Made by a program: the position numbers and the translations under genes. DNA of 62,071 nucleotides, the filler included. It is 17 parts of 17 records of this genome, joined end to end, with 100 filler letters (N's around TTAATTAATTAA, not from the genome) between each part and the next. Parts side by side here need not be neighbours in the genome. Positions count along the whole stretch, not along the records: positions 32,206 to 36,576 come from SRR15195285_22712; 16 more parts are not named here. One strand, 5' to 3'. The notes under the pieces were generated by a model. The model searched no databases, had not been told where the DNA came from, and saw only the letters and a program-made list of their open reading frames with translations. Below are positions 3,001 to 51,173 of the stretch, one piece after another (the first letter of the stretch is position 1; every line of letters begins with the position of its first letter).

Positions 3001-3204
3001 GAAGTAGAAGGCACTATGTCCTTTCAGAGCTCGCCCCGTGACGTCGGGATGCGCATCCGTGGAGGAGGCAACCGCGGTGTGCTGGAGTTCCGCGTCGACG
3101 GTGGCCAGTGGGACGCTGTGTGTGACGACTACTTTGATTCAAACAACAACCAGGCCGACGCAGTCTGCAGATCCCTCGGCTACGACGGCGGCGGCACCCA
3201 CTAC
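1..3204 (+). CDS. Large multidomain extracellular protein, partial at both ends: LamG/concanavalin-like domain, Cys-rich modules, fibrinogen-like/USOMP5-like module, discoidin-like segments and the start of an SRCR domain
   Basis: Open frame across the whole contig. LamG-like signature WVHIALT...LYANG...LFIGG...FAGELQSLKIWNRAL. GWMVILKSNG...NAKYPEYN...CGMQRPGFN...RARWG module. AWELYGSNDGVTW is discoidin-like. C-terminal MRIRGGGNRGVLEF...WDAVCDDYF...AVCRSLGY matches the SRCR start. Confidence 0.8.
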
Positions 3205-3304
3205 NNNNNNNNNNNNNNNNNNNNNNNNNNNNNNNNNNNNNNNNNNNNTTAATTAATTAANNNNNNNNNNNNNNNNNNNNNNNNNNNNNNNNNNNNNNNN
3301 NNNN
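3205..3304. other. Artificial contig spacer N44-TTAATTAATTAA-N44 (first of 16)
   Basis: Identical 100-bp spacers start at 3205, 6429, 9543, 12990, 16251, 20492, 23783, 28909, 32106, 36577, 40078, 44264, 47626, 51041, 54311 and 58252. The core places stop codons in all six frames. Confidence 0.98.
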
Positions 3305-9642: not shown

Positions 9643-12600
9643 CTGGTTGCCGGCCTGCGTGGGTGGGGACAGCAGACCCATACAGGTGAACAGCGAGCAG
9701 CGGCGGAAGCGTGCGCGGCTCAACTCGCAGATCGAGCAGGTGGGAGTGCAACACGAGATGGAGCCTCTCGTGGAAGCTGCTCTGCTTACACACGGCCCAG
9801 GGCTGCGCGCGTACCCCTCCCTGCATGGCAAATTGAAGGCGTGCGCGTGCGCCAGCAAGGAGTGCCGCGAGTTCCGGCAGCAGTACAACTTCGGCGACGC
9901 CACCGTAAGGGTGACAAACTCCGACAACTGGCCGGAGGACCGGCAGCGCCGGCACTTCCGTGCGCTCGGCAAGAGCGAGGCAGAGACTAAGGCGTTGGTC
10001 GAGAGGGTTGCCATGGGCAAGGACGTCCGCATCGCGACATGGCACTACTACGGTAGTGACCGTGAGCTGCAGCGTGGGCGGTGGGTCATCAAGGCCTTGA
10101 CGCAGAACCCACGGCAATTGCATCTTGGGCGGCGGCGCACGATCAATTCGCCACTCCCTAACCGCTCTGTTGGGTCCAACGCCGATGGTGATGGAGGGGC
10201 TGACTCGCCCAACTACCGCGCGCATCCGGACTGGCGGCCGTTGGAAGCGCCAGCATCGACACCGATGGTTGCAGGAGCAGCTTCTGCAGCAGTGGCTTAT
10301 TCGGACCGCACGGCTAGGCTACAAGCGCGGGTATCGGTGGCGTCTGCACAACCACCGCAGCTGCAACGCACGCCCGAAAAGCCACAGGAGCGCAAGCTAG
10401 TGGCACTCAAGGTGTCTCCGGATGACAAGCGGCGAGGCGCTGATTCGTCCCGGCCGTGGTGGGGGATGACCTGCCTACCCCAGCTGCAGCTTCTGACCGA
10501 TATCCTCAACGATCACTACACGCAGGACTCTCAGCACGGTGGCTGCCCGGGCCAACACTCCGAGGACCAACGGTCCGATGGACGGGCGCGCTACGCACAA
10601 AAGCCTCGCATCACCTGGCGGCCGTCTTGGGACAGCACACATGGCACTTGTCTGTGCTTGCACGGCGAATGCACCGCCTGTGGGCAGACGTTCCGATGGG
10701 ACTCCCAGCCACGATCAGAGGCGACGGGCAACTTCATGGGCAATGACCTGATTGGCGCTGCCGTTGCGGCGTCTCCAGTGACGGTGACACACGCGCAATA
10801 CTTCATAGCTTTACTGATGATGCAGCCTCCGGCAGCGAAGACTATCAGATCGTTCGTGTACGAGCACGCCGCCCCAGTTTTGCACAGCATGTGGGAGGAG
10901 CAGCAGGAGGAGATGTTTGCGCGGATTCGGCACACAGACGGCACAACTGGCCGCACGATCATCCTCGAGTTTGATATGAGCTTTAGTTGCGTGCGGTCCG
11001 CGGAGCACAGCACTGCCTCGTGCGTTGACGCGGAAACAGGTCTGGTGCTGTGGAAGGCCGTGTTCTCCGAGGGTGAGGCAGCAACACGCGAACCACTTGC
11101 TTGCCGAGAGGGACTGGAGTTGTTCAAATCGAAGGGAATTGACGTTGGGGCCATGGTTATTGACGATTCGAATTGCCGGGTGATCATTGAGGCTACACAG
11201 CGTGGGCAAGCGGCTACCGAGGCTCAGCGGCGGCAATTCATCAAGGTGCTGCTGGATGTCTGGCACTCGAAGAAGAACGGCAAGCCAGAGATGGAGAAGT
11301 ATCTGAATGGCGACGACTCGAGTGCACTTGATCGGTTTCTGAAGGGATTCGAAGTGGAGTGCGACGCACAGGGCCGCGTTCTCACAGACTCGGGGCTCGT
11401 GTCGTTGCTAGACTTAATCTCGGCTGCACAGGCGGAGAGTTTCAAGCGCGACTTTTCGGTCTACTTTGTGGCAATCGAAAGCCTCTCGGACGAGCAACGT
11501 ACTTCCTGGGAGGAGATGAAGGACGACCCAGAGATGCATGCGGATGCGCTCAAGGCGATGCTTGCGGATGAGACAGCAGAGCACTCGAATCCGAATGTCC
11601 GCGACAGTGTGACAGAGGCAGAATATGAGGCGCTGCGTGTGGAGCTCAACGCGCTCAGATGCGACCGCAACGAGAAGGCGCTGCACCGTGCACGCCGAAA
11701 GGCAGAGGGCACAGGGGGCGTGTTTGATCCGAGCGAGGTGACCTTGCAGCAAGCTCTGTCCCATGTGGACCAATTCCGATTGAACTCGGTGCCAGTCCCA
11801 GCAAAAGCCGAGCTCCTGGCGATTATTCGTGCGCTGCACCGGCGGTACAGCAGCAGCAGCAATACTGTCGTGATGGCCGATGGACAGAGCTTGACCCTCG
11901 ACAGCAAGAAAGGTGGCATCACGGTTGGACCGGCGAACGAGCTTGTGCGCGAGTGTTTGGCGTCAGCTACTGGCATGGGGATGCCAGCCAGTACGGCTCT
12001 AGCAGAGCTATGCCGAGCTATCGATGTGTCGGAGATCATCGCATCTTTGCCGATGAAAGCGACCAGTGTTTCGGCGGCTGCATCATGCCACAAGGCCGAC
12101 GTTCAAACTGTGTTGAGCCGGGCCCGAAGTGAGACAATAAAGAAAAAGGCTTCGTACTTTGATTCTTTTGGTCACTTCTGCCGCATCGTTAACGAGGTTT
12201 GGGGGACTGCGCAGCAGAAATTCAAGGCTTTCTGGGTGCTTCAAGCGCTACAAAACGTCCCGAGGCACTACGCTGGCGATCACACCGATTGTGCATGCTA
12301 CATGTGGTTTAGTCGGTGCAAAGAACGGGCGTGTGGACCAATTAGCAGAAGAGATACGTCCCTTGGTTGGGATAACTTGCCTCTGTCACACACGATGTCA
12401 AAGCAGGTAGTGAAGATTGCGACAATAATGATGAACGATTACACACTCTCAAATAAGATGCGACACCACACTTATCGCACAGTGCTTTTTGGGCGCACGA
12501 GTCGCAACGAGTCGTGGAACCACGCTTTGAGAGTGTTTTCGGCGATGTACTCCCACCTATCCAGAAATCAGGAGGAGCTCAATGCGACGGTAGTGACTCT

Positions 12601-12989
12601 AATCTGGAATGAGCTCACGAAGCATAAGGTTCATGCTTTGGGTACCTCGAAGATAGAGCCGAGAGCAACGAAGGGCAAAGGGAAGTTGTGGAAGAAAGGA
12701 CGCTTGGCTCCAGTGCGTCAGCCTCGACCACTCGTGATGAGCTGGCACATAGATATGTATGCCAAGCTCTTCGGTGCCGAGGTCCAGTGGTGGTGTAAGC
12801 ACCACAATGATCACTTGCATCAATTGCGAGAGAAGCGCAGACAAAAAGGCGAGCAGCTGCAGGCGCAGCGAGATGACACACTCGCGGGGGCGAGCGACTT
12901 AGCTGCGCTACGAGCTATCGAAGCCTCGCAACGTAGTGGCGAGGGTGCACTCAAACAGGAATTCAAACCTGTATTGGGCGTCTACTGCA
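9643..12989 (+). mobile_element. Kolobok-like (Mutator/hAT/P/Kolobok group) DDE transposase ORF spanning the whole contig, partial at both ends
   Basis: CxxC...FRWDSQP...GN.LIGAA, then candidate catalytic D (ILEFD, 10973), D (MVIDD, 11162), DVWH (11255-11266) and E (RTSRNES, 12509). No stop or frameshift over 3.3 kb. Confidence 0.7.
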
Positions 12990-13279
12990 NNNNNNNNNNN
13001 NNNNNNNNNNNNNNNNNNNNNNNNNNNNNNNNNTTAATTAATTAANNNNNNNNNNNNNNNNNNNNNNNNNNNNNNNNNNNNNNNNNNNNCAGTCTTGTCT
13101 CCAAAGTCAGTCTATCACGAATGATGAGGGCGGCATGACGCGCATGGGCCCGGCGCGCGGCGGCCAGGGCGGCATCCGACGCCGTATCATGGCGGCCCGG
13201 CGCGCGGCGGTTCCGCGCCGGCCCCGGCATGCACGCCCAGCCGCACGCGTTCACCATTCAGCCGTACGCGCTTGCGTAG

Positions 13280-23782: not shown

Positions 23783-24336
23783 NNNNNNNNNNNNNNNNNN
23801 NNNNNNNNNNNNNNNNNNNNNNNNNNTTAATTAATTAANNNNNNNNNNNNNNNNNNNNNNNNNNNNNNNNNNNNNNNNNNNNGAGTACCTGGAAACCACT
23901 GAAGAATTCGCGCGCAAAATTCGCGGGAATGCAATGCTCCGGAATCCGATGTGGATTCCTGTTGGATTCTGCATCTATAAATGCGGGTAGGATCCGATAT
24001 ATTTGAAAATGCAGCGTACACAGTCTGTGTGTAGGAATCCTACACGCTACAGTATCAGGATACACAGGCCAACTCGCGGGACGGAGCCATCCAAAGTAAT
24101 CGTTCCCCTGGCGTTCGTTCCCCTGGCTCAGCCGCGCCTCCCTGGGGGGCGGGGCTCGCCGCAGCGAACCAGAGCGATAGAGACGGGCGGGGGAAGCCGG
24201 GAAGGGGGGAGGCGCAGACAGGTTAAGGGCGAGGGCGAGTGCTCCTCAGGTGGGAGCAGTTGGCAGGTCTGGAGGCATCTCGTTGCGGGGGGCTCAGTCA
24301 CCCAACTGGACTGTGGACCTCTTCGCAACTCGCACC

Positions 24337-27300
24337 ATGCCAAAATGGGCAGGGGACGCGCAAGCGGGCGAGTACGAACCGCTGACCAGGGACGTGAAAG
24401 CTGACGGGGACGAGGGTGGAGGGGCGACGGTGACGAGGCGGAAGCATGCAGAGCTTGTCGGGCACGAGGGGGGAGACGTGCAAGCAGTAGCGTGCACCGA
24501 GAAGTACATGATCACCGCGGATGCAAAGAACGGGCATCTTTACATTTGGGATGCACAGAATTGCCAAGAAAAGCTCTTTGAAATCAAACGCGTAGAGCAG
24601 AAGCGGATCTACGGCATTGCAGTTTCGCCAAACAAACGCCTAGTTGCCGCGGCGAGCTACGATAACAACTCTGCCTTCGTCTACGACATCGAGAGCGGCG
24701 AGTGCGTGCAAAGGATTTTGGGCGCGTGGGCTGACAAAGAGGACAGCGAAAAACTTGGCAGCGAGCATGCAGGTGGGCACTCAGGTGGAGTTTGGGACGT
24801 CGCGTTTACTCATGATGGAAAGGGCTTGGTGACAGGTGGCGGAGACTTCACTGCTCGGATCTGGGAGTTCGATGTCCCTGACTCGAAGCGGGCAATCTGC
24901 AGGCACGTTCTTACGGGCCATACCTATCACGTGCGGAGCGTTGCATGCTCGCCTCACGAAGCTGGACCGCAATGTGTCGTGGCAACGGCCAGCTGGGACG
25001 GCACCGTGCGCACCTGGGAGGCTAATACCGGTGAGCTGCTCCATGTATACCGCGAACACGGCACGGAGCGCGTCAATTCGGTTGTGTACTCGCCGTGCGG
25101 TAGCACGTTTGCCACAGCTTGCGACAGCGGTACGGCTATCATCTTTGAGGTCCCCAGCGATAGCAGCCAGAAAGCCCGAGCTGTGGGCTACGTAGGCCTC
25201 CAGATGAGCGAGGAGGGTGCCGAAAACGATGACCAGCGGGCGAGCCGAAAAGGGGAGGCCAGCAAAATTCAGGCCGTGGCGTACAGCCCGGACGGCCGGA
25301 GCGTGGCGACAGCGTGCGACAAGTACGGCGTACGCATCTGGGACCTCTCCGTCGGTGAGGTCGTGCATCAGCTAGGTAGCCCGACCGGAAGCCAAACCAA
25401 AGCCGTCGCGTTTGCACGGGATGGAGAGCGGGTGCTGACAGGTGGCAACTCAAAGGTAGCCCGAGTTTGGGACACGTTTTCACACGGCGTCTTCAGCTGC
25501 CGCTACGATGGGCATACGAATGTTGCGACCTCCATTGCCATTGCTCCTGATTTTGGGTCATTTGTGAGCACTGGCTTTGACCAATCTGTGCGGCACTGGA
25601 AGGTAGGAGAAAAAGAGGGGCAAGGTAAACAAATTGGGGAATGTCCAGCTCTCATTACATGCTGTGGCTACCATCGCGGTGCACGCTACGTTGTCAGTGG
25701 TCGATATGCCCAAGACAAAACCGGTGCAATTGACATATGGGATATGCAAAATGCTGAAACTGCAGACCCAGCCCACACCATCACAGGAATCAGCAAAGTG
25801 CAAGACATCGATTTCTCGCCGGACGGAAAGAGCTTTCTGGTCGCCTTCGAGAACCATACAGCCACTATCTACGACTTCGACGCAAAAGCTAGCGATGTGA
25901 AGACATCTTGCAAACTGCGCGTCACTCTCGGACGGGCGGACAACAAAGACCCGACGTGTGGTCACACGGCAATTGTGTCCTGCGGTGCGTATTCGTCGGA
26001 TGGCAACAGGGTAGTGACTGGGAGTTGGGATAAGCGCCTGATCGTGTGGGACGGTACAAACGGCGATCTACTTTGCACGCTGGCAGGTGACCCCAATGGT
26101 GTGCACGGCCACGGCTGGTGGGTCAAAGATGTTGCATTTGACGATGCGAGTGGCGAGAGCACTCAACCTACCTTAATCATCTCGGCTGGCTCTGACAACA
26201 CCGCCAGGGTATGGCAATGTGGTGCGCCCCCGGACCAAGTAGCTGGCACGGGAGGTGTGGGAGGTACTGAGCAAGCGAGCGAACAAAGCGACCAGCGCGA
26301 GCCGTGGCACCTCGCACTGACTCTGGGAGTTAGTCGCAATACGGACCCCACCAAGGGGCACATTACTGAAGTTTGGGCTGCTCGGTTCCTGCCAGATCGC
26401 GACGACGGGTCGAAGCGAGCAATCACAGGTAGTCAGGGTGGCCAGGTAATCGTATGGAATCTAGATGAGCATCTTGACGAAGAGCGATTGGAGCGCAGCA
26501 TCTGGCTATCAGGTCCGGCAAGTTGCATTGAGCTGCTGCAACACGACAGAGTGCTCACCACGTCTGGAGATACCGTGTTCCAGCTCGATCTGTCCGCACC
26601 AAAGGCTGATACTATGTCGGGTGAGGACTTGCTGCATTTTGCGATCATGCCTGATCTGAAGGAGGGCAAGTCTACCCGGTCTACGCGTGTGTACGATCTG
26701 TACAAAAGCTCGCCAAAGCACGGTCAAGACCTTACAGGCTGCATGCTGCAGCCTATCGGCGTTTACGGTGAGACAGCACTCCACATGGCTGTAGAGCAAG
26801 GCAATCGGGACTTAGCCGTAGTCCTTTGTGGTGCGAAAGGAGGTACTGTTGCTTCCGTCGTTCGGTTGGACGCTTGTGGGCGAACGGCCTGGTCCATTGA
26901 TCTGCACAAGTATGAGCACACGAGGGCAGACATAGACGCCATGAGCGAAGATGCAGTGCAGAACGAATTGCGCACATTTGGGTTCGAGAAGGAGCTCAAG
27001 AAGCTCGAGGAGGACTTGGCAGCAGAACAAAAGAAAGGCAATCGCAGTGAGGAAATTAGTAAGTGTTTGAGAAACGCCAAGAGATTGATATGCGCCCAGG
27101 AAGACTATCCAGAGCATGCGAGGCAGATGGGATACTGCAAGAGCCTTGGTGCAATCCAGTCTGGTGTTTTCTACGGCCTGCCCGTTGCTTGGAATGCGAG
27201 AAAGGCCCAACATGCAATCGAACAGATTCAAGGGAAAATGAGGGACCAGGGAATTTCGGGGAACGAGGTAGTAGGCGAGGAATCGCCGGAATTAGGGACC

Positions 27301-28638
27301 TTTCCTGACTTCCTGACTGTCCACCCCTACCAGAAACCAATGCAATTTCTAGAGTGCATGCTCGAACATGTCGACAAAGCTTCTGCACAAGATAGATCAC
27401 AAATTTTCGGCTCGCTTATGGCACATGCGCTTGTTGGCAAGGCGTGGGAACAGTACGGAAGCCGACACTTTAGGGTTGAACTCTTTCTGTATCTAGTTGT
27501 TGCGATCTGTCTTTCAGCGGGAAACTACCTTCGCATCAACCAGTGTGACGACGCTAACTCAAATCACGAAAAATTGAGCCCCATGTCGTGGTCGGATTTG
27601 CACGATGGTCGACTTATCGCAGTTGAAGGCCTGAGTATCGTTGCAGTGCTGGGCTTGCTACGGCTCCTCTATCTTGAGCTGACGCAGTGTGTCAAGGACG
27701 GAACAAAATACCTGAAGCATTTTTGGAACGTTTACCAGCTGTTGTCATACGTCCTTGCACTTCTCTCAGTCGGAGCTTACAGTTCGCAAGATTGTGAATC
27801 TTCTCGTTCTTTGTACGCCCGTCATGTTCACGCCTTTGGCGTTGGTCTGATATGGTTTGGCATGCTGTTCTATCTACGAGGATTCAAATCAACGCAGGCT
27901 GCAGTGCCTATGATCAACAGGATCATTATCGACGTCTTTCCGTACATCCTACTGCTGGTGGTGATTTTGATAGGGTGTTCGTTCATGTTCATGAACCTGC
28001 AAGACAGATCTGATCCGGACAATGTACAGGCCCAGCTTTATGTCAACCCTATCCTTGCCCTGCTTAATTCTTTCTACATGATGTTCTCGCTGACGGACGT
28101 TCCCGACTTTTCGTCGCACATGACGATTGCTGTGTTCGTCGTGTTCATGATGATTGTGCAACTGGTGCTGCTCAACATGCTGATCGCGATAATGGGAGAC
28201 TCCGTTGACTTCATCCAGGAGATAGAGGCTGCCATTGGCAACGAGGAGCAAGCAGAGCTACTGCTAGAATTTCACGACAACATGCACGATTTTGGCAAGG
28301 CTGTGAAAGTCCGTTGGGCCTGGCTAGATACTGTAGTACGGGTCTTCTCACGCAGGGAAGCTGGCACGACAGGACTATTTTCATCACGGAGCTTATGTCT
28401 CGCACCTGGTTCTATGCGAACAGGCGAAGAGTGGAATGGGCATGTCGATGCAATCAAGTCTGAAATCAGTGAGGCTGTGGGAAAGGTCGAAACTGGCCTT
28501 CACCAACGCATCCATGCACTGGAGGACAAGCTCGACTCAAGTCTCAAGGAGATTCTTGACCGACTGGGTGACCTGGGTGACCCACCAGCAAGAGGCAGTA
28601 CACTATCAGGAGGCATTACTCCAAGGAGGAACTTGTAA
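24337..28638 (+). CDS. WD40 repeat + ankyrin + TRP-like 6TM ion channel with C-terminal coiled coil, ~1433 aa, intronless
   Basis: More than 10 GH...WD repeats. Ankyrin YGETALHMAVEQGN. Channel region LYLELTQ...YLKHFWNVYQ...LFYLRGF...IIIDVFPY...VLLNMLIAIMGDS. Confidence 0.85.
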   Translation: MPKWAGDAQAGEYEPLTRDVKADGDEGGGATVTRRKHAELVGHEGGDVQAVACTEKYMITADAKNGHLYIWDAQNCQEKLFEIKRVEQKRIYGIAVSPNKRLVAAASYDNNSAFVYDIESGECVQRILGAWADKEDSEKLGSEHAGGHSGGVWDVAFTHDGKGLVTGGGDFTARIWEFDVPDSKRAICRHVLTGHTYHVRSVACSPHEAGPQCVVATASWDGTVRTWEANTGELLHVYREHGTERVNSVVYSPCGSTFATACDSGTAIIFEVPSDSSQKARAVGYVGLQMSEEGAENDDQRASRKGEASKIQAVAYSPDGRSVATACDKYGVRIWDLSVGEVVHQLGSPTGSQTKAVAFARDGERVLTGGNSKVARVWDTFSHGVFSCRYDGHTNVATSIAIAPDFGSFVSTGFDQSVRHWKVGEKEGQGKQIGECPALITCCGYHRGARYVVSGRYAQDKTGAIDIWDMQNAETADPAHTITGISKVQDIDFSPDGKSFLVAFENHTATIYDFDAKASDVKTSCKLRVTLGRADNKDPTCGHTAIVSCGAYSSDGNRVVTGSWDKRLIVWDGTNGDLLCTLAGDPNGVHGHGWWVKDVAFDDASGESTQPTLIISAGSDNTARVWQCGAPPDQVAGTGGVGGTEQASEQSDQREPWHLALTLGVSRNTDPTKGHITEVWAARFLPDRDDGSKRAITGSQGGQVIVWNLDEHLDEERLERSIWLSGPASCIELLQHDRVLTTSGDTVFQLDLSAPKADTMSGEDLLHFAIMPDLKEGKSTRSTRVYDLYKSSPKHGQDLTGCMLQPIGVYGETALHMAVEQGNRDLAVVLCGAKGGTVASVVRLDACGRTAWSIDLHKYEHTRADIDAMSEDAVQNELRTFGFEKELKKLEEDLAAEQKKGNRSEEISKCLRNAKRLICAQEDYPEHARQMGYCKSLGAIQSGVFYGLPVAWNARKAQHAIEQIQGKMRDQGISGNEVVGEESPELGTFPDFLTVHPYQKPMQFLECMLEHVDKASAQDRSQIFGSLMAHALVGKAWEQYGSRHFRVELFLYLVVAICLSAGNYLRINQCDDANSNHEKLSPMSWSDLHDGRLIAVEGLSIVAVLGLLRLLYLELTQCVKDGTKYLKHFWNVYQLLSYVLALLSVGAYSSQDCESSRSLYARHVHAFGVGLIWFGMLFYLRGFKSTQAAVPMINRIIIDVFPYILLLVVILIGCSFMFMNLQDRSDPDNVQAQLYVNPILALLNSFYMMFSLTDVPDFSSHMTIAVFVVFMMIVQLVLLNMLIAIMGDSVDFIQEIEAAIGNEEQAELLLEFHDNMHDFGKAVKVRWAWLDTVVRVFSRREAGTTGLFSSRSLCLAPGSMRTGEEWNGHVDAIKSEISEAVGKVETGLHQRIHALEDKLDSSLKEILDRLGDLGDPPARGSTLSGGITPRRNL

Positions 28639-31655: not shown

Positions 31656-32541
31656 CAACATATGAACGATGCAGCTATATGTATACTAGTACTTTTATCC
31701 GTATGTACCCACGTAGAGCAGCTGCTACCCGCGGTGTTTGTGCGCACTGCTCTGTACTAGCGTGTGTACCGCCAGGAAAATGGAGCGTAAGCCGTAAGCC
31801 GTAAGGCAGCCTGGCGGGGCTCCAGACCGTATTATGTGATCGGATACGCGGGTGCATCCGATCGCACCGGCGGAAAGCCGGAGTTAGATCCAGTCTGACT
31901 CTGATCCACATCCAGCGCGCAGTGCCCAGAATGCATTGTGCGCACCCTCGCTCGCGCGCGCCGCCGTCGGCGTGGGCCTCGCGCGGGCGCTTGCGCTCGC
32001 ATCGCGCTAATACTGGACGCTGCGACGGATGTGCTGCGCGCTTCGTCGCGAGTGCGACGGACATTAAAGCGATATACGTCCCCCCCCCCCCCCCCCCCCC
32101 CCCCCNNNNNNNNNNNNNNNNNNNNNNNNNNNNNNNNNNNNNNNNNNNNTTAATTAATTAANNNNNNNNNNNNNNNNNNNNNNNNNNNNNNNNNNNNNNN
32201 NNNNNTTCATGCAATCGGTCACATAGGTGGAGGCGTAACAGTCTCCACTTTTCAAATTCGACAAATGTAATGTGCGAGGTCGCGTGCGCCTGCGCGTGCC
32301 GCGCACGCCCACGCCGGATGCCAACGGCCGAGTCATGAAGAGCGTTGACAGTCAACGACGGCGAAGTTGCGTTGACTGAGGCGGTACAGCTGCAGTGGCT
32401 GCTGCTGGTGATCCTGGTGTCCAGGGCCGGCGTGCGGTGAGTTGTGCACCTCCCCACCACTCTAGGCGCGTCGTGTGTGTGTCGCGCGCGCGTGTGTGTA
32501 ATTCCCTGGGTTGCTTGTATTGACAGGAGCGAGGCGGTGCC

Positions 32542-35142
32542 ATGGCTCGCGTCGGAGCCTCGGCGGTGCTGCTGCCTGCGCTGCTGCCTGCGCTGGCTGT
32601 GCCCAGTGCTCGCGGGGCCCCGGGCGCGCCGCCGGGAGCGCCGCCTGCGGTTCTGACGGGTGCCATTCGATGGGACGCATGGTTCGGCGCACCCACCGCA
32701 GCGCACGAAGGGCTTATCGGCCGAGCGACGACGAAGGCCCTGGAGCCGGCCAAGTACCACTACCGCCTGCCCTTCTTCGCGAAAATCGAAGCCAACGGCA
32801 GCGTCGTGGTCAACGGTGACAGCGCCACCGTGATGGCCCAAGAGAACAAATTCGCGACCGATCATGGGATAGATTACTACGCCTTTTGCACGTACCCGAT
32901 CGGCTGCGCCGACTACAACCCGCCAGATAGCGCCTGTGCCGGCGCCCAGTGCTGTGCGGACAACTACAAGCTATCGTACGCGTTGGAGCGCTATCTCGCC
33001 TCGCCAGAGCCGAAGCCGCAGTTCTCACTCATCCTGCAGGCCCACAGCTGGTACCCTGGCGTCAACTCTGGTAGCAACGAGACGCTCGCACAGGAGGCAG
33101 AGCGCTACTCCAGCTACTTCGCCCTGCCGTCGTACCAGAAAGTTGCGGGGAACCGCCCGCTCGTCTTTTTGCTTGGCGGGTCGGACGCGGTACCACATCT
33201 GACAGAGGCACTAGACCTGCTGCGGCAGCGCTCGAAGAGGGCTGGAATCGGCGAGCCCTTCTTCTTTATGATGCAGAATGCACCAACCGCGGCGGCACTG
33301 CGGCAGCTGGTGAACAACTCCGCCGCACTTGGTGCGAGCGGACTGTCGCAGTACAATCTGGTCGGCAACCGCACGTCCGCTGGGTTTCCGTACGCGGAGA
33401 ACATGCGCTTTGAACAAGGCTGGTGGCGTGACGCTGCGGCGACAGGGATGAGTGTTGTCGTGCCAGTCTCGGCTGGCTGGGACAGCCGACCACGGCAGGA
33501 GACTGTCATGCCGTGGGGGGATGCTGGAAACAAGCGGTGTCTCCATCAGCTTGGACACGAGTGCTGGATGGAGGACCCGTCGATGACAGAGCTCACGCAG
33601 CAAACGAAGTCCGCGCTGGAGTTCGCGTCCAAGATGGGAGCTGTGGCGGATGATGCAGCTGTGCGTTCAGTGCTCCTCTCCGCGTGGAATGAAAATGACG
33701 AAGGCCACTGGATTGTCCCCTCGCTACAGCAAGGTCCAGCCAAACTCGAGGCTGTGGCCAAAGCAATCACAGCGCACAAGGGGCGACGGGAGAGCTACTG
33801 GAGTCAGGTTCAGTGGGGTCTCAAAACGGATGACAACCATGTCACAGGGATGGCCGAATCGCGTCCAGATGTCGGCGCCATTTACTTCGGCGACTGGGCC
33901 CCGGATCCGTGGATGGAGTTGGTGCACGGGACAAACTGGACAGAATGGCAGCTGCCAATCAACGCACAGCCGCGCTACCCAGGCCACTTCCAGCCCAACC
34001 TTCCGATTGACGCAAAGGGCTGGGGGCCGGCGCATCCGGAGTCGGATCCCGAGAATATGGCTGTCAAGATCGACGCAGCCGCAGATCACTCAATCGATTT
34101 CTTTATGTTTGACTGGTACTGGTACGCAGAAACTGGAAACCCGGCGCCAGCAAAACTTTCAGGTCGACAAGCTCCTGTGTTTCCGAAGAGCGACCAGGGT
34201 GGTCCTTTCCTTGAGGCGGCACTCAACGCCTTTGTTGCCTCAAACAACTCCAAGCGCCTCAAATTTTGCCTGCATTTTTGTAACCAGGATTGGGTCGACG
34301 TGCACCCAGCCAAGTTCGGTTACCATGCAACTGGGCGGCCTTTCGATGCCGAAGCAGCCGGTGGCGCCACCGCGCCGCCCACAGTCAGGAATGAGCTACT
34401 GATGTTCGATGGTTGGATGACGCAGAAAGTTTACCATTCTGCCTTTGATCACATTGCACAGAAGTTCTTCACATTGGATAATTATTACACGATTCCAACG
34501 AAACAACCCGATGGAACTGTGGAAGACTGTGTCCTCTTCGCATTCTACATCCTCGCCAACATGGTCTCAAGCATGGGTCAAGAAGCGACGATCGAGAGCC
34601 TGCAGTACCTGCGCAACGCCAGCCAATCGCACGCGGGCAAGTGTGTCCACATCCAGGCCATGACTCCACAGGCTTCGCTCTACCCTGTGCTCGGACAGAT
34701 GGGCATTGACAGTCACACAGACTACTGCTGGATGAAGCTGGGAATGGCCAAGCAGTTCCCAGAGACTCCGTATGCAAACGTGCTGAGCGGTATTGTAGAT
34801 AGGTGGAACGAACGTGAGGATGAGCTGCGGAACCATTCAGTTCCGCGCTACATTCCATCTGTCTCCACTGGATGGGACTCGTCTCCGCGGACTCTGATCC
34901 ACGACCGATTCGAGCCCATCGGCTACCCGTGGGGACCGGCCTTCCACGCAGAGCCGCAGCAATTCGGGCAGGGCATGCAGTTTGCGAAAAGCTGGTCGCA
35001 GAAGCGTTGTGGTCCAGAGGGATGCCCGCCAGTTTTGATCAATGCCTGGAACGAGTGGTCGGAAGGCGCATATCTCGAACCGGACCAGCAGTATGGCTTT
35101 GCCAAGTTGCAGCAGGTCAACGCGACGTTCGCACACCTGTGA
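32542..35142 (+). CDS. Secreted protein with two tandem GH99/WbsX-like glycoside hydrolase domains
   Basis: Signal peptide MARVGASAVLLPALLPALA. Domain 1: GAIRWDAW...IDYYAF...GWDSRPR...SAWNENDEGHWIVP. Domain 2: GAIYF...WTEW...IDFFMFDWYW...GWDSSPR...NAWNEWSEGAYLEPD. Confidence 0.85.
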   Translation: MARVGASAVLLPALLPALAVPSARGAPGAPPGAPPAVLTGAIRWDAWFGAPTAAHEGLIGRATTKALEPAKYHYRLPFFAKIEANGSVVVNGDSATVMAQENKFATDHGIDYYAFCTYPIGCADYNPPDSACAGAQCCADNYKLSYALERYLASPEPKPQFSLILQAHSWYPGVNSGSNETLAQEAERYSSYFALPSYQKVAGNRPLVFLLGGSDAVPHLTEALDLLRQRSKRAGIGEPFFFMMQNAPTAAALRQLVNNSAALGASGLSQYNLVGNRTSAGFPYAENMRFEQGWWRDAAATGMSVVVPVSAGWDSRPRQETVMPWGDAGNKRCLHQLGHECWMEDPSMTELTQQTKSALEFASKMGAVADDAAVRSVLLSAWNENDEGHWIVPSLQQGPAKLEAVAKAITAHKGRRESYWSQVQWGLKTDDNHVTGMAESRPDVGAIYFGDWAPDPWMELVHGTNWTEWQLPINAQPRYPGHFQPNLPIDAKGWGPAHPESDPENMAVKIDAAADHSIDFFMFDWYWYAETGNPAPAKLSGRQAPVFPKSDQGGPFLEAALNAFVASNNSKRLKFCLHFCNQDWVDVHPAKFGYHATGRPFDAEAAGGATAPPTVRNELLMFDGWMTQKVYHSAFDHIAQKFFTLDNYYTIPTKQPDGTVEDCVLFAFYILANMVSSMGQEATIESLQYLRNASQSHAGKCVHIQAMTPQASLYPVLGQMGIDSHTDYCWMKLGMAKQFPETPYANVLSGIVDRWNEREDELRNHSVPRYIPSVSTGWDSSPRTLIHDRFEPIGYPWGPAFHAEPQQFGQGMQFAKSWSQKRCGPEGCPPVLINAWNEWSEGAYLEPDQQYGFAKLQQVNATFAHL

Positions 35143-35296
35143 AGGTCGAAAATAAAGCAGCTTTGCGCGCAAGGCCGCTAAGCTTGGTCGATCACCGCAT
35201 CCCTCCCAAGCACTCATGCAGGTGCAAGGGTTGAGCTGGGGCAAAGAGGAGACGAAAGTCCTTGCATTCAGTTCTTTCGCATCACCAAAACCGCGA

Positions 35297-36519
35297 TCAG
35301 CTGTCCAGGACAACTGAGCAATCGTGCAGGCAGACAGAGCGGTCGTCCGACACCGAAGCGAGGCGGGTGCCGGTCTCGTTGTAGGCTACGCCCCACACCT
35401 GATCGCTGTGTGCGTCGCTTGTGTGGATGTCCTCCCGCTTCTTCAGATCCCAGAACTTCACCGTCCCATCGCTTGAGGCCGAGGCGAACATGTTTGCGGT
35501 CGGCGAGTGCGCGAGCCCTAGCACCCAGGAGGAGTGGCCGCCTAGGCTCGCAACCAAGCTGGACGACTTGATGTCGTGCAGGTGGATGTGCTTGTCATCC
35601 GAGCCAGTGAGCAGGCTCGATGAGTCCGGGCTGAATGCGAGCGCTCGCACCGCCATGTTGTGCCCCTCGAGCTTGCAGACTGGCTTCGTCGTGCTCACAT
35701 CGAACACTGTGACGGCTCCGTCCGCATCGCCCGTGGCCAGCAGGTGGCCGTCCGGACTGTAGGCCACACTCATCGAGAACTTGCCGTGTGGGTCCAGCGT
35801 CCCCGCCTTGGTTCCGCTATCCACCGACCACAGGTTGACTGCGCCTGACTGGCTGCCGGAGGCGATCAGCCGCGCTTTCGGCGACCAGGCGAGCGTCCAG
35901 CACTCCACCGGCCCGCAGTCGATCTGCTTCTGGACCTCGCCGCTCGCTATATCCCAGATCCGAATGTGGCTGTCGAGCGAGCTGGACGCGACGAGCTTGC
36001 CGTCCGGATCGGCGCTCACCGAGATGACCCCCAGCTGGTGCCCCGAGCACGTCTTCACCTGCCCGACACAGCGACCCGATCGGCTATGAGCACGCTGAGC
36101 CCTTCAGTAGCAGCTGGAGATCGCTCCTAAACGGCGAAATGAAGGGCAGCCTCGCCACACTGACCCGAAAAGGGAGCCGGGTGGACAAAACAAAACAAAG
36201 AGGTCTAGACACGACGCCGACTGGCACGATCGACTCAGCGCACTGCCCTGCGTGTGTGAATGGCTGCGTGTGCCTGTCTGCCTGTCTCTCTGCCCGTGCG
36301 TGTCTCTGCGTGCCTGTCCCTGACACACAGAGAGGCAGGCAGACAGGCAGGCTGGCCCTGTTGTCTGTCAGACATACGCACCGGCTCCAGGTTGTCCCCC
36401 TGCCATGTCTTGACCGTATTATCCACCGAGGCGGTCACCACCGTGTTCGTCGTGTTCGTCCAGGCCACAGCCCAGATCCCATCCCCATGCGCCCCGTCCT
36501 GCCGCTGGACGGTCTTCAT
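35297..36519 (-). CDS. WDR61: WD repeat protein 61 (SKI8), 1 intron
   Basis: AHGDGIWAVAW, GHQLGVISV, SSSLDSHIRIWD, GPVECWTLAWSP, GHSSWVL and HSDQVWGVAY. Intron 36059-36381. Confidence 0.93.
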
Positions 36520-36576
36520 CCCCAGTCAATAGTATTAGGGGAGATCAAAGTGGGGCGACCACTCCCCCAGTCAATA
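36520..36576. repeat. ~45-bp tandem repeat (CCCCAGTCAATAGTA...GGCGACCACTC) abutting the WDR61 start codon and running off the contig
   Basis: Units at 36523 and 36568 match 20385/20427. Confidence 0.75.
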
Positions 36577-36676
36577 NNNNNNNNNNNNNNNNNNNNNNNN
36601 NNNNNNNNNNNNNNNNNNNNTTAATTAATTAANNNNNNNNNNNNNNNNNNNNNNNNNNNNNNNNNNNNNNNNNNNN

Positions 36677-39600
36677 CTCCGGCTCCGGCTCCGGCTCCGG
36701 CTCCGTGCCTGCTCCTGGCCCTGACAGCAGCAGTAGCAGTTGCTCCAGCTCCTGCAGGTCCGGTGCTGCGTCAGTACTTTCGACAGCTGGCGGCAGTGGC
36801 GGTGGCGGTGGCCACCGGGGCGGCGACTCGTCTGGTGGTAGAGGAGGCACCTCATCAGGTGGTGGCGGCGGTGCTGCTGCTGCTCCACCTGGTGGCGGCG
36901 GCGGTTGTGGGGCTGGTCTGTCTGCTTCCACGTTGACCACAGGTGCTGGCGCGGGTCGCAGCCACACTCCAGCACCCGGGTGATTATCCAGCTCGTCGAG
37001 CTGTCGCTGCAGCTCACGTGCAAACTCAAGGTCATCACGCTCCTGCTGCGACAAGTCGCCATCACGCTCGCCGGCATCGCCGCCGTTAGCGGCAAGTGCT
37101 GCTGCCGCCCTTGCTGCGGCACGCTCCTGCGCAGCATCTTGGTGCTTGCGTAACTCGGTGGCAATGATGGGTGAGATGGCGCGCGCGAAGATCGACACAC
37201 CGAACACTACCAGCCACCAGCCTAACGCCTCGATGGCATCCGGCGCATCCTCCCTGCCTCGATGGATGTTAAACACCAGCAGCACAAGTCCGAGCACAAA
37301 GCTTACGGTCTGGGCAAGCGAAGCGAGGTGCGATTTGCGCAGTCTCAGTGCATTGTGCTCTCCGCGGAACTCAATGACCTGCAAACGCTCGAAGCGCGAC
37401 TCACCGGTCCATTCGATGACCCGCTCCGTGGCACGGACCGCGAAGCTAGCATATCCAACCTCCACCGATATGATTGCGAGTGACGTGATAAGACTGTTGT
37501 GCAGGGCGCCGTTCCATAAGAACAGCGGCCAGCCGCAAGTGCCCATCGTTCTTCCCCACCAGCTCACGTCTGCTCTGTCGTAGAGCTTCAAGTAGGCAGC
37601 CATCAGGCCACCCAACAAGCCTAGCACGACTACTTCCCAGAAGACAATACGTGTCCACTCTGATTCCCTTTCTGGATCAACGGAGTGGCGGAAGACCCAC
37701 AGCAACCAGCCGGACACGACGGCGCCAAGTACTGTCAGCGTCCTGCTAAGGTGCCACTCCAGGCCGATGATCTGCAAGCGATTGTTCGGAGCATGCTGGC
37801 TGGCCACTGCGATTATGCCAGTCCAGCTGAGCCCAATAGTTGGTGGCACAAGCACATAGAAATACCAGTAGGCAGGATCGGCAATATCAGAGCCGACCAA
37901 CAACGGCCAGCCAACCGTATCAACAAGGATCACGAGAGTTACAGGGATGCGCCAGTACCAGCCGCTGCGCCAGACGTGTCGCCAGCTCGCAACGATGTCC
38001 ACAGCCAGCATGCAGATTGTCAAGAACAAAGTGACGCCGATCACCCAGAAAAGCGCGACGCAAGGCCACGTGCAAGTGTACGTGACCAACGGCTGCACCG
38101 AAACCTCCGCGCTGCTATCCTCACCGTCGTCCACCGTCACACGGAACGCAACTACCAGCGCAAGGTACACTGCAAACCCTGCGACAAACGACACACCGAG
38201 AACTGTCTCGGACGGCTCCCGATGCACAGCGACGAGCTTAGTCACGAACACATTGACCCAAAAACCCCAGCACCACATCGTGCCCAGCCCACCAGCACAG
38301 AAAGGAGCCAGTACGTACGCCACAAACCATGAAGACGTAGCCCAGTCCTCGGCGTTAAACAGAGCTGGCCAGTACGCAATGGCGGGACAAGCCACGAGGA
38401 ACGCCGAAATGAGAAAGCAGTCATTTGCCATCTCCGTCCGAATGCTGTCTAGGTCGATCGCCACGGCGACAGCAAATACGGACGTCGCCAACACAAACTC
38501 TGTTGCGGGCAAATATCGCAATGTTGCACACGCCCAGTTGCACTCGACCCCAGGTACTGAAGTCGACTCCAAACTCGCCAGGTTGAGCAGTGGCTCACAC
38601 GGACTTGACTGGTTGCCGGTCGTCCTCGTCTGATTTGTCGAATGCTGATGGGTGCAGTTTGGCATGACGTCTGCAAGGGACGGGGCAACGCGGCAACTTT
38701 CTCCAGTCGTGTTCGTCCAGTTGATCAACGGCTCGTGCAAACCACCTTGGGTTGTGACGTTGCGCCCACCACCACAGCAGCAGCACGCATCCATTGTGCT
38801 TGAACTCAACCCCATGGACGAGCCCGACAACCTAGAGTTTGAACTGTGATCGTACCACTCCAGCGTCGCGGACCGTGTGCAATCATCCCACTCACAGATT
38901 TCCTGGCAGCCGTTGAGGACTGTAAAGAATCCCTGATGCGCTGCACGCATTGAGCCGAAGCCCTTTGGCGTATCGCAGCAGCCCTCGAAGGTTGCATGTG
39001 TTGCCGGGTTGGTCGTGGGGACCACCTGCGCAGCGACGATCAGCGCTGCAAAAACCGCTGTGACGAAGGGCGGGCAAAATGCTCTCTGCCGATTGCGCAA
39101 ACGCTCTCGTCGTGCAGCAGCTTCCGCCTCTCGGCGAAGATCTGCCCAGTGCCTCTCCATCCGCTGCTGCGCAGCGTCATCATCCACGATTGCAACGTCA
39201 TTGATCAAACTGTCACCATCGACACCTGCGGTCAGGTTTGCGCCGAACAGCGGAAACGAAGCCGTCTCTAGCTCTCCCCAACGGATACTTCTGCCTTGAG
39301 TCGGCACGTCTGAGAGCAGCTTCGGATGTTCGTCCCGAAGCTTGCCCCAAAGATCCGAGTCCGCCTCTTCCTTAACCTTGCGAACCAAGTAGGCTTGCCG
39401 TCTGCGCAGGAATTCTTTCTGCGCCCCAAATGCAGCTGACTCACCTTCCAGCGCAAAACCACCCCACCCGTCCATCTGTTCCAAAAAGCAGCTGCGCTGA
39501 TCGCAGCCACCCTCGCCCCGTGGGCACTGGCCGGGCTCACGCCCACACTCCTTGCCACAGAGGAAACACCAGTGCGAGCCGCACGGGCAGCTGTCCATAT

Positions 39601-40077
39601 GCACACATGCATCGTCCTTGACAGCGCGCACTCCGCAGCGGGGACACTGTATCGAGCCACCACGATCCAATGCGTCAACTACTCGCAACCGCAGCTGGGC
39701 TAGTGCCACCTCTTCTGGGTCGCTCATCTCATCCTCTTTCTGCTTCGCGAGCTCACGCCGTGCCGAGTTGGCGGCTGAATCCTCAAGGAGCGCAAGTCGT
39801 ACCTGAGCTGTTTCGAACACAATCGCCGGGCAAAATCCACGGCCAAGCAGCTCTGTTTCTCTGCTCCAGCCACGTTCAGCTTCTACATCCACCCCAGTAA
39901 GACTGTGAATTACACTGTCGGCCCGCTGCTCGCGCCAAAATTGCGGGCTCCGGTTCCGCGGATCTAGGAGTATCCGCTCGATTGTCGACATATCGATGGC
40001 ACCACAGTGGCAGTCCATCAAGGTCGGCGTTGAGGCCAGGTCTCGGCGCGGCGGCGGCGGCGGCGGCGGCGGCAGTG
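36677..40077 (-). CDS. RBR-type (RING2/Rcat) E3 ubiquitin ligase-like protein with many transmembrane helices and a Pro-rich/EP-repeat tail, partial at both ends
   Basis: CPRCGVRAVKDDACVHMDSCPCGSHWCFLC (39557-39646). More than 10 hydrophobic segments. UIM-like DDLEFARELQRQL, then poly-Pro and (EP)n. Confidence 0.72.
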
Positions 40078-47625: not shown

Positions 47626-47725
47626 NNNNNNNNNNNNNNNNNNNNNNNNNNNNNNNNNNNNNNNNNNNNTTAATTAATTAANNNNNNNNNNNNNNNNNNN
47701 NNNNNNNNNNNNNNNNNNNNNNNNN

Positions 47726-50700
47726 CAGCGCACGCAGTATTGATGGCATCCATGTCGCACCCTCCTACCGCACCATGTACATGTGTTGCATGCGGGTTCC
47801 CAGTACCGCCCGAGTGAACTTCGCAGATCTCATAAAATTGACGCCAAGGAGCCATCACAATTTGCTCAGTGAAACTGCCGCCGAGGTTCGAATGCGCGCC
47901 GGTCTCGTCAAACAAAGTTGGCAGCACGTGCCCGCAGTCTTCATAGAATGGAAGGTACATAGACGCGCAAGTCGGGCTGCAAACGTCTGGCGGCCCTTCG
48001 ACACCGTCCTCGTTAGCGCAGACTTCCCCAGCGTCATCACAGCAATGAGAGATGAGGTTCGCCAGCCGCGCAAGTGCTTGGCTAGAGTCGCACACTCCCG
48101 TGGCACCTAAAGTCTGAGCTTCCGAAACAAGCTGCGTGTACAGGGCGTTGACGAAGTTGGGTGCCACCGCACTGTTGAAGAGCCTCACGTCGTCGAGAGC
48201 GCCCTGAAAGTTGTTCACATAGCGATGGCCGCCTGTTGCTGTCAAGACCGTCCGAGCGCCAATAGTAATGATGTGATCCAAGCCCGGGATGTCAAACCGA
48301 GGCAGCCTTGCGTTGCGCGGTGAATCAGGCTGGCCGTTGATGTAAGAGTTCGTGCGGAAGTTGCGGTTAAGTGAAAATCCGACGTGAGTCCAGACGCCGG
48401 GTTGAATGTTTGTCTGCCCGTCGATGTTGTGGAACGAGCCGTCGGTTCCTTCCATGTAAACGCGGACGTGATTTGAATGCAGCTGAAACTGATACTGCAG
48501 CTTGTCGTTGGCTGTTCCACCCACCGCTGTTGGCATGCTGCATGGAGGAGCTCCACCATCCACGCCGCACGTCACGCCATTCTGCGAGACGTCCGACGTG
48601 CAGCACTGACTTGCGCCGCCGGGGCGCCTGCCGCACTTGGAACCACCACAGCCTCGGCAGCTCGCAGGACAACAGACCGTCGAGTCTGCGTCAAGATGTC
48701 CAGTTGGTCGCGAGCAGTCGTACGCAGGTGCGCTGCCGAAGCCCTGGCCGTGGGCAAGAAGTACGCCATTGCCGTTAGGGTCGTCAGCAGCCACGTCATT
48801 TACTCCGATAGCCGCCACGTCTTCCCTCTTCATCCACGCAAAGAACGAAAACTCAGTCAGATCGAACGAGTCAGACGGCGGAACCTCGATGTATGAGCCT
48901 TCGTTTCCGTCAAACTCCATGACGTACCCCCTCTGGCGATCGAAAGTCGACGAAACACCGCCAGTTACCTCACCGTCATGGCCCCCGACGAGGTCAGCCG
49001 CTGTGCCGTCGTCGAAGGGCCAGTATGCCACTTCAGTGTGATCGTAGTCGAGCACCGGACCTGCATTGCACGGCTGCAGAAAAATGTCGTCCATTTGGCA
49101 GGTCTGCGCCATTTGCTCCACAGCCCACTCGTGACTGTCGAAGGCGCAAGTGCCAGCAAAACAGCCAGTGGCGTCGGCTGCAGTCCGCACGGCGTCTTGG
49201 CAAGTGCCGCCGCAGCTGCCACGATCGCACATACCCCACATCGACACGATCATATCACGACAGCTCTCCGGATCATGCGCCCCACACTTGGTAGAAGCGT
49301 CAGCACAGCAGCTGACGGCTGCCGTGCCTGCGAAGATGTCCTCACACGTCGGAGGCGCAGGAGGGTAGGTGTTGCCAGGCATGACGCGAGTCGTTCCAGA
49401 CCCAGTCATCGTCATGATCTGGTTGACTTGGCACTCGTCTTGCTCAGAGGTCCAGATGTATTCATAATTGAACATGCATCCAGTATTTCTAGTCTCATGG
49501 GCCTGTATCTCAGCAACCGTACACAGACGCGCACCAGCGCCCAGGCAGATATTTGCCGCCTGTTCGAAAGTCACGTCGTTGGTGCAGCCCTCTGGGAAAC
49601 CATCAGACTCAGCGCACACGCTCGCGCCACCGAAGCCCTGAGTCTCTTCCCAGCTGAGCTCGCCACACGTCAGTAGAGATGCCGACGGATGACACGGCGT
49701 GCCATCAGCACACAGAGGTTGAACGTCGGCACAGCAGCGAACAGGAAGCACCTGTGTGATCGGAGTGCACTCCTGTGGGAACTGCTCGATCGAGCCCGAT
49801 GCACCTGCGAGAGACCTGGCTTGGCCCTCAGGGCAACCAGAGCGAGTGCTTGACCACACACGTTGCAGGTCAAAGTTGCATCCTGTCGTGTGCGTTTCGT
49901 CATGCAGAATCTCCTCCATAGTGCAGAGGCGCGCTCCAGCGGTGAAGCACATATGTATCGCATCCGGGAACGAAGCCGAGTCGCAGTTCAGGTGCACGCC
50001 GTCTTCGGAAGCTCCACACACGCGCCGGGATTCACGATTGCTAGTTCCGAGTGGATTGGCCCCATTTTCCACATCGACGACCCAGGCAATGTGACCGTTG
50101 CCTTCTGCTTCCGCGTTGAGTTCAGCGCACGTTTGCATACTCTGAACAGGAGCACACGTCTCCCGCTGGACTGCATACGTCACTGTGGCAGCGACAGAGT
50201 AAATTCGGCCATCGTCGCCGGGGCCACCATCGAAGGAGACGTCTTGGCCAAGTGTAGCACCATCGAACGGCCCTCCAGCAGCAGGGCCACCGTAGTGCCA
50301 CTGAACATCGTTGCCTTTGTTGGCTGTTTCAGTCTCGCCTGGAGCACGAATACCGCCCTGTCCATAGTCGAAGTCGATGACCCCCTGACCATCATGGGCC
50401 CAGCCGATGGCATCCCCCTTGGCGAAATTGCAACGGTTCTCCGCAGGGATGGCGATGTGCACAGGACCGTGCGTCGTGGCAGTAAACGGCTGAGAGCAAT
50501 GCAGCCGCCAGGTTGTCGCAGCTGTGCAGTCTGGGTTGCAGTTCGGGTTGCTGGGACTGCAGTGGCGGGCATTCACGTTGCAGTGGACTAGAGTACCCTG
50601 TGCATTGGCGACCATCGGCCGCCAGACTTGCATCCAACCATGGCCAGGCCGTCCAACGTAAATGTCAAACGCGCGCACGTTGCCGTTGCTCTGGAAGACC

Positions 50701-50985
50701 AGAGTCTTGTCAACAAACTGAATCGCAGTCGCGCCATCGGGAGTTGCGCGATCGCTGGTTGGGTTACCCAGGATGAGCTGTGGGTGCTCCCCTTCCCCGT
50801 CGCAGGCGTCAACATCCAGGGACGGCGCTGGGTAGGTGCCAAAGCCAGCGCCAGCTCCGGCAGGGATCTGGGTCGGGTTGGAATACGACGGAACGGTCCA
50901 CCCTGTGGTGGGCGGTGTGCCAGCGAACTCTCCCTCCTGGATGGCGGAGATGTAGAAATCGATGTCATCGCCGTCGCCCGGTGTC
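47726..50985 (-). CDS. Large Cys-rich extracellular multidomain protein (repeated GARLC...CCAD lectin-like modules, LamG domain, Cys-rich helical module), partial at both ends
   Basis: Two CxxxGARLCTxxEI...TGCxF...W...CCAD repeats. LamG signature YWPFDDG...FDG...WTHVG...YING...IGAR...FQGALDDVRLFNSA. Confidence 0.78.
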
Positions 50986-51173
50986 CTGCGCGCAACCATT
51001 GCGGCAAGGTCAGCACAGCACAGCACAACACAGCACAGCANNNNNNNNNNNNNNNNNNNNNNNNNNNNNNNNNNNNNNNNNNNNTTAATTAATTAANNNN
51101 NNNNNNNNNNNNNNNNNNNNNNNNNNNNNNNNNNNNNNNNAACCCTATCATGTCATGTCATGTCATGTCATGA

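Follow-up and report, generated by a model that had tools for sequence, protein, structure and literature searches.

Why should two complete and mutually divergent enzyme-like domains be encoded behind one signal peptide, and what is the meaning of the five residues, LKTDD, that stand between them? The question is raised by an intron-less gene for a protein of 866 amino acids (aa), found in a stretch of DNA of 62,071 nucleotides (nt), hereafter the window. The protein has a signal-peptide-like N-terminus, followed by two domains, A and B, that both resemble glycoside hydrolase family 99 (GH99) enzymes, with the pentapeptide in the short linker that joins them. Our answer, held with slightly better than even confidence, is that it is a secreted-type tandem GH99-like enzyme with a junction motif, [LFI]K[TS]DD, under selection; this estimate does not extend to cleavage of the protein at the motif. 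Source names among its cluster relatives are Picozoa sp. COSAG05, SAG25 and COSAG01, and Picomonas judraskeda, and the gene is assigned by sequence to a picozoan, an uncultured heterotrophic marine picoeukaryote. Picozoa are abundant heterotrophs close to the red algae, and we know of very little on how they digest their food.

The evidence that carries this reading comes from the junction itself. Conservation was followed in a sample of 303 fetched proteins, widened by a search with the junction (aa 380-470, shorter proteins) and by cluster members; a protein was taken as spanning if it ran from the tail of A (RRxxYW) through into the start of B. Relatives are 48-89% identical to the 866-aa query. 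The linker differs almost throughout in the first junction-spanning alignment, except for an exact (L/F)KTDD, and [LFI]K[TS]DD is present in all 25 A-to-B spanning proteins, which have 20 distinct linkers of 14-69 aa. Compared pairwise in 12 representatives, the linkers share a mean identity of 0.22 on the N-terminal side of the motif and 0.26 on its C-terminal side. Between the end of A and the motif lie 2 to about 52 residues, and between the motif and B about 6 to 37. With proteins included in which a different module, GH28, precedes B, the motif is kept, with four to five fixed residues, in 28 of 28 junction-spanning proteins. Across the sample, 30 of the 303 proteins contain K[TS]DD, every time within a linker leading from a module into B or within a tail of A. 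The Thr/Ser position varies conservatively, and further Asp often trails the motif.

Structural models place the motif in a region of low confidence. Per-residue confidence (predicted local distance difference test, pLDDT) declines over aa 421-440 of the domain A model, from 71 to 49, and is below 50 there from aa 431 on; in the model of domain B it lies below 50 for aa 424-435, and LKTDD is modelled directly after the last helix of A. A fixed peptide, at variable distance from both domains and within sequence that appears disordered, would be expected of a short linear motif that is read by another molecule. The sequence-only reading of the window, made before any database search, had located LKTDD correctly, had called the linker unlike the Pro/Thr/Gly-rich type of carbohydrate-active enzymes and had taken the pentapeptide for a conserved feature of the junction, all of which held. 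Its pattern, [LM]K[TSA]DD, stood in part: L, T and S are seen, whereas the M and A variants are not, and F and I are found instead.

What, then, are the two domains that the motif separates? An exhaustive HMMER search returned 4437 relatives at E <= 0.001, and each half of the protein is matched by a separate large family of proteins that stand alone, about 370-430 aa in length. We label these families by their motifs, WNExDEG(G/H)W for A (aa ~36-424) and WNEW.EG.YLEPD for B (aa 444-866). The A family is mostly stand-alone, at about 370 aa, and its bacterial members are annotated solely as 'hypothetical protein'. The 90% cluster of one A-type protein of 485 aa (P0058) also lists 32-aa enterobacterial YoaK proteins, which looks like a database clustering artefact. 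Against PF14307 (Glyco_tran_WbsX; gathering cut-off 25.1 bits), the scores are 101.2 bits for the entire protein and 81.6 bits for the B half, above the cut-off; the A half is borderline, at 24.8 bits with the signal peptide, 25.3 without it and 24.5 as aa 1-447. Among the 70 sequences of the domain A alignment (A4), 48 match PF14307 at E <= 0.001, including 7 that span the junction and contain part of B. PF14307 was the only family reported, with no Pfam match to PF16317 (Glyco_hydro_99) at E up to 1 for the whole protein or up to 10 for the halves. The halves can be aligned with each other over the C-terminal third only (30% identity over 112 aa, E 1e-6), so that they represent two different subfamilies and no recent duplication.

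The two halves were modelled separately with AlphaFold2, from per-domain alignments of 70 rows for A (A4) and 50 rows for B (A5); a joint alignment of 116 sequences (A3) was dropped, as it misplaced the A family onto the B half. Mean pLDDT is 88.4 for domain A (model maf35c41117bd) and 89.2 for domain B (model mc5becaa36eed). The top solved structures matched by Foldseek are, for both domains, the GH99 endo-alpha-mannosidases MANEA and BtGH99 (E 4e-9 for A, 4e-12 for B), followed in each case by 5ngw (OpGH99A) and then by GH71. As modelled, both domains have a (beta/alpha)8-type GH99-like fold. The B-family profile also reaches OpGH99A (5ngw, E 1e-7) and BtGH99 (4acy, E 5e-6) by sequence, with WNEW.EG aligned to FNEWHEG.

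Residues expected of the active site are retained in both domains. W382, N383, E384, E387 and G388 hardly vary among the 70 sequences of the A alignment, the WNExxEG residues are nearly invariant in alignment A1 too, and the Glu pair of A sits in the segment that can be aligned to WNEWSEG of B. In GH99, an EW[H/G]E motif bears both catalytic Glu residues, according to one paper on the evolution of GH99 (PMC11025385). Neither domain matches the motif as defined there, B reading EWSE and A reading ENDE, and both Glu are kept in each. Since the motif differs and PF16317 is unreported, the domains are not GH99 proper. Both are probably active glycoside hydrolases, because the Glu-x-x-Glu pair that is catalytic in GH99 is kept in each.

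The N-terminus is consistent with secretion. The stop-to-stop frame around the open reading frame (ORF) comprises only 872 codons, so that the first ATG is the start of the 866-aa ORF. Kyte-Doolittle windows of 19 residues exceed 1.6 only at starts from aa 1 to 5, which fits a signal peptide and no further membrane segment; the N-termini of the relative P0002 and of the ORF at a related locus, L001, are comparably hydrophobic. The protein also contains 9 N-x-S/T sequons and 14 Cys, and this combination with a hydrophobic start is as expected for the secretory pathway. The earlier description of one signal peptide ahead of two complete, mutually divergent GH99/WbsX-like domains, each with its own WNExxEG, finds support in hydrophobicity, Pfam, the AlphaFold2 models, Foldseek and the Glu pairs. 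The features of the gene are collected in Table 1.

Table 1. Features of the gene for the 866-aa protein, in positions of the window
Feature	Position (nt)	Strand	Basis
Whole coding sequence, 866 aa + stop, intron-less	32542..35142	+	single ORF
Signal-peptide-like N-terminus, ~aa 1-25	32542..32616	+	hydrophobicity; cleavage point approximate
Domain A, ~aa 36-424, divergent GH99-like TIM barrel, closing long C-terminal helix aa 400-424	32647..33813	+	AlphaFold2, Foldseek, borderline Pfam
WNENDEG, aa 382-388, ExxE Glu pair of domain A (E384, E387)	33685..33705	+	alignment
Inter-domain linker, aa 421-443, fast-evolving	33802..33870	+	relatives, low pLDDT
LKTDD, aa 427-431, junction motif [LFI]K[TS]DD	33820..33834	+	conservation among relatives
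Domain B, aa 444-866, classical WbsX/GH99-like TIM barrel	33871..35139	+	Pfam, AlphaFold2, Foldseek, profile match
WNEWSEG, aa 836-842, ExxE Glu pair of domain B (E838, E841)	35047..35067	+	aligns with FNEWHEG of BtGH99

The gene is real and probably expressed. Its sequence words are present in 19 of 22 listed runs (15 studies, nearly all of them marine or seawater metagenomes). Contigs from RNA libraries (X14, X15, X18), which may contain DNA, lie on both halves of the gene at >=99% identity, with partial cover and no joints, and record 9 of X15 (33665-33949) bridges the junction unspliced, with one differing letter; parts of the gene outside this cover carry no meaning in that respect. The mapped contigs are about 99% identical within the population and therefore uninformative on constraint at the motif. 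A metagenome scan for DNA of relatives returned one locus only, L001, which is 85% identical. Between WNENDE and GHW this locus has a 125-nt GT..AG intron (L001 1379-1503), whereas the gene in the window has no intron there (near 33703). Inside the L001 intron (~1437-1472) lies a short element, translated ...ILPRQARDKHRE..., and the same element is found in P0206, P0208 and P0263, in P0206 at a second place directly after LKTDDD; no copy of it is present in the window. From its sequence, the element looks like a mobile intron-generating (introner-like) repeat of some Picozoa.

The motif also occurs behind a module that is unrelated to A. In P0210, P0221 and P0222 (6 contigs, ENA and Logan), the C-terminus of a GH28 module is followed by LKSDD, a linker and domain B. 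The GH28-type beta-helix of this group was assigned through the relative P0217, which is 75% identical and bears PF00295. LKSDD stands 6 residues after the beta-helix. GH28 relatives that stand alone lack the motif, their sequence ending just behind the last Cys pair. P0210 shares about 125 identical residues with P0223, an A-to-B protein of Picozoa sp. COSAG05, running from just past the motif region through the linker into B; the stretch of about 25 residues around the motif has nothing in common in the two proteins, and the upstream modules are unrelated. The GH28 protein thus did not simply receive its motif along with the copied segment. The sequence-only reading had suggested that the pentapeptide recurs at boundaries between unrelated enzyme modules in predicted secreted proteins of marine protists. 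The three GH28-to-B proteins are the one piece of evidence for this suggestion, but the motif always stands ahead of B, which falls short of a general signal, and the named carriers all belong to one phylum.

Other relatives lack the motif. B-only forms with a signal peptide of their own (P0003, P0061 and P0205, the last 82% identical over the covered part of the junction query) are without it, which speaks against a general signal. It is likewise missing from all 18 A tails that end before B, two truncated copies of a spanning type excluded. The absence of the motif from stand-alone A, B and GH28 forms links it to the junction, yet speaks against a general signal. Fusions of the two domain types in reverse order exist as well, with a B-type followed by an A-type domain in the protist-like P0004-P0009, and with a WbsX-like domain ahead of an A-type domain in bacterial fusions such as P0082, from a Cytophagia metagenome-assembled genome (MAG), with relatives in MAGs of Hydrogenedentota, Armatimonadota and Planctomycetia. 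K[TS]DD is absent from the reverse-order protist-like and bacterial fusions compared, again in disfavour of a general signal. These reverse-order fusions fit cooperating domains as well as they fit a polyprotein of independent enzymes. A further A-type architecture is seen in P0211, P0235 and P0238 (Picozoa sp. SAG25 by source name), which carry an apparent insertion of a SUEL lectin domain (PF02140) before the last segment and end in an RRRSYW tail, with neither the motif nor B after it.

Several observations weigh against a selected junction motif in a tandem GH99-like enzyme. Domain A lies only just at the PF14307 threshold. The carriers of the motif are related and not independent, amounting to about ten linker types by eye from one phylum. 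Every instance precedes the same domain type, B, so that the motif could have spread by descent as a cassette of motif, linker and B, with no independent signal required. A closely related type, P0204 (Picomonas judraskeda and relatives, 11 cluster members), is 86% identical to the query over 128 aa and has GLDADG, GLDAEG, GLEVDG or GIDADG at the position of the motif; its ORF stops soon after, and B may lie behind an intron or may have been lost. The identity shared by P0210 and P0223 points to a duplication of recent date, to gene conversion or to one locus with alternative 5' modules. The support for one unspliced transcript is moderate, because RNA libraries can hold DNA. Within the window, [LM]K[TSA]DD occurs once in all six frames, the single instance that the sequence-only reading had reported, and this is background frequency: in window ORFs of >=100 aa (42,523 residues) no enrichment is found, as 5 of 60 class-permuted patterns likewise occur once. 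The motif is above chance because it is conserved in relatives, and inside the window alone it is no more than chance. Conservation of the motif at the DNA level had been suggested as a check: its 15 nt are identical in the window and L001, but in this two-sequence comparison 34 of 439 five-codon windows are fully identical (7.7%), and the identity is not significant. A tree of the first 82 columns of B leaves 13 of its 20 inner branches unresolved; there is a weak hint that the A-to-B proteins may use two B subtypes.

We nonetheless favour a selected junction motif in a tandem enzyme of the secretory pathway, and a scheme can be outlined for how it might operate. The product would enter the pathway through its N-terminal signal peptide, and A and B would act on one common glycan, for example with two activities; their fusion in both orders, in protists and bacteria, makes it probable that the pairing is functional. 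[LFI]K[TS]DD, for its part, would be read by another protein. Our leading guess, though one that we hold to be less likely than not, is that it is a putative endoproteolytic site at which the modules are separated. The protease would be one that takes Asp at P1 or P1'; the cut would fall after TD if the enzyme is like legumain/vacuolar processing enzyme (VPE) or an Asp-specific subtilase, and before DD if it is astacin-like. With its hydrophobic residue, Lys, Thr/Ser and Asp-Asp, the motif resembles sites of proteases that accept Asp at P1 (legumain/VPE, Asp-specific subtilases, caspase-like tetrapeptides such as IETD) or at P1' (the astacin/BMP1 type). A Kex2/furin-like site at the conserved RR (aa 415-416) was ranked below the motif, as it lies inside a confident helix of the model.

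An alternative that we consider unlikely, though one to be taken seriously, is that the protein stays a whole two-domain enzyme, in which the motif is not cleaved and serves as a modification site (O-glycosylation or phosphorylation of Thr/Ser beside the acidic run), as a metal- or partner-binding patch or as a hinge. That A and B types are fused in both orders fits domains that need to stay together, but the reverse-order fusions manage without the motif. Conservative variation at the Thr/Ser position only and the frequent Asp behind the motif are consistent with this alternative, as is the modelled position of the motif directly behind the last helix of A. A fixed hinge, however, is difficult to reconcile with the highly variable spacing to both domains, and the occurrence of B alone with its own signal peptide in so close a relative as P0205 argues that A in cis is not needed.

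Extending the proposal beyond this gene, to [LFI]K[TS]DD as a picozoan module-junction signal, appears doubtful to us. Such a signal would serve lumenal processing or sorting and would let one signal peptide deliver A, GH28, B and perhaps other modules to the feeding or secretory pathway. Modules could then be shuffled ahead of a 'motif-linker-B' cassette, and the arrangement would act as a eukaryotic substitute for an operon, as the sequence-only reading had proposed.

It is improbable, in our estimate, that the motif is a functionless relic, inherited from an ancestral picozoan junction of A to B and recombined into the GH28-B gene. The restriction of all carriers to one phylum and one downstream domain type, the identical downstream segment of P0210 and P0223, the loss of the motif in the P0204 type and the lack of significant identity at the DNA level would all be in keeping with such an origin. 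Yet the motif is fixed in 28 of 28 proteins in a linker that is otherwise nearly fully turned over (indels up to ~50 residues, 22-26% identity), and the segment adjacent to the motif is wholly different in P0210 and P0223, so that recent copying fails to account for the motif in the GH28 protein. Hardly credible is a nucleic-acid element (a splice, RNA-structure or regulatory signal) with the peptide as its by-product, for which the 15 identical nt and the intron-like sequence into which P0206 turns directly after LKTDDD could be cited, since runs of five identical codons make up 7.7% of the windows in the same pair, LKSDD, FKTDD and IKTDD keep the class of peptide despite base changes, and an RNA-library contig crosses the motif unspliced.

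The surroundings of the gene can be read over a short distance only. The window consists of separate contigs chained by 16 pairs of 44-N runs, each pair flanking TTAATTAATTAA, with spacer sites from 3205 to 58351, one per 3-5 kilobases (for example 32106-32205). Since these contigs are unlinked, positions 32206-36576 alone are the true neighbourhood of the 866-aa gene, and order across the spacers is not linkage. Within this contig, a WD40 gene lies on the opposite strand, tail to tail with the 866-aa gene. The next contig carries an ORF of 1130 aa (36629-40021, -) with no Pfam match, many hydrophobic segments, a Cys-rich RING-like stretch and a Pro-rich tail. On other contigs, an ORF of 1462 aa (24250-28638, +) combines many WD40 repeats with an Ion_trans (PF00520) channel domain, an unusual fusion; one of 1132 aa (9647-13045, +) has a Mutator-like transposase domain (PF20700); and two of more than 1000 aa (1-3252, +; 47670-51026, -) each have a Laminin_G_3/ConA-like lectin domain and no other Pfam match.

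As a secreted pair of GH99-like enzymes that are uncharacterised so far, the tandem is a candidate for the digestive machinery of Picozoa. It also offers a well-defined target: five residues that are conserved within Picozoa although the rest of the linker varies freely, and that occur downstream of two enzyme modules unrelated to each other. Should the motif prove to be a cleavage or sorting site, it would represent a new recognition signal of the eukaryotic secretory pathway and provide a rule for annotating multi-enzyme precursors in protists. If it is not such a site, the protein would still be an example of permuted domain order in a pair of glycosidase domains shared with bacteria. The literature searched holds no description of an LKTDD, LKSDD or MKTDD motif and nothing on this picozoan protein; the junction peptide is thus not described there, and the protein itself is of a known kind, a glycosidase with more than one catalytic domain.

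Among known enzymes, the GH99 endo-alpha-1,2-mannosidases and mannanases (human MANEA, 6zdc/6zj1; BtGH99 of Bacteroides, 4acy/4ad0; BxGH99) are the best solved structural matches to the picozoan domains, with the Glu pair aligned. They differ in having only 11-14% identity to these domains and TM-scores of 0.43-0.65, and in that the picozoan domains match PF14307 and not PF16317. Within the PF14307 or 'GH99-like domain-containing' proteins, which include OpGH99A (5ngw), domain B is a clear member and domain A a marginal one. Bacterial WbsX domains usually form part of large glycosyltransferase fusions (GT2/GT4), whereas the picozoan pair stands alone behind a eukaryotic signal peptide. The reverse-order fusions likewise unite these two domain types in a single protein, 760-890 aa long, but in swapped order and without K[TS]DD; their linkers are rich in Ala, Pro and Ser in P0004-P0009 and of other composition in P0082, and P0006 and P0007 carry an extra SUEL lectin domain.

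Secretory-pathway precursors that are cut into several modules provide the second comparison. These include the proteinase-inhibitor precursor of Nicotiana alata, Kex2-processed repeat proteins of fungi, and the light-harvesting complex (LHC) and Rubisco polyproteins of Euglena and dinoflagellates. Such precursors are made of many similar small modules, and their cleavage has been demonstrated; the picozoan protein has two large, different enzymes and one junction with another peptide. What they have in common is a single ORF in which several modules share one targeting signal, with a short peptide conserved at the junction. Of the features of a processed polyprotein, the 866-aa protein shows complete modules behind one targeting signal, joined by a short peptide that is conserved at the junction.

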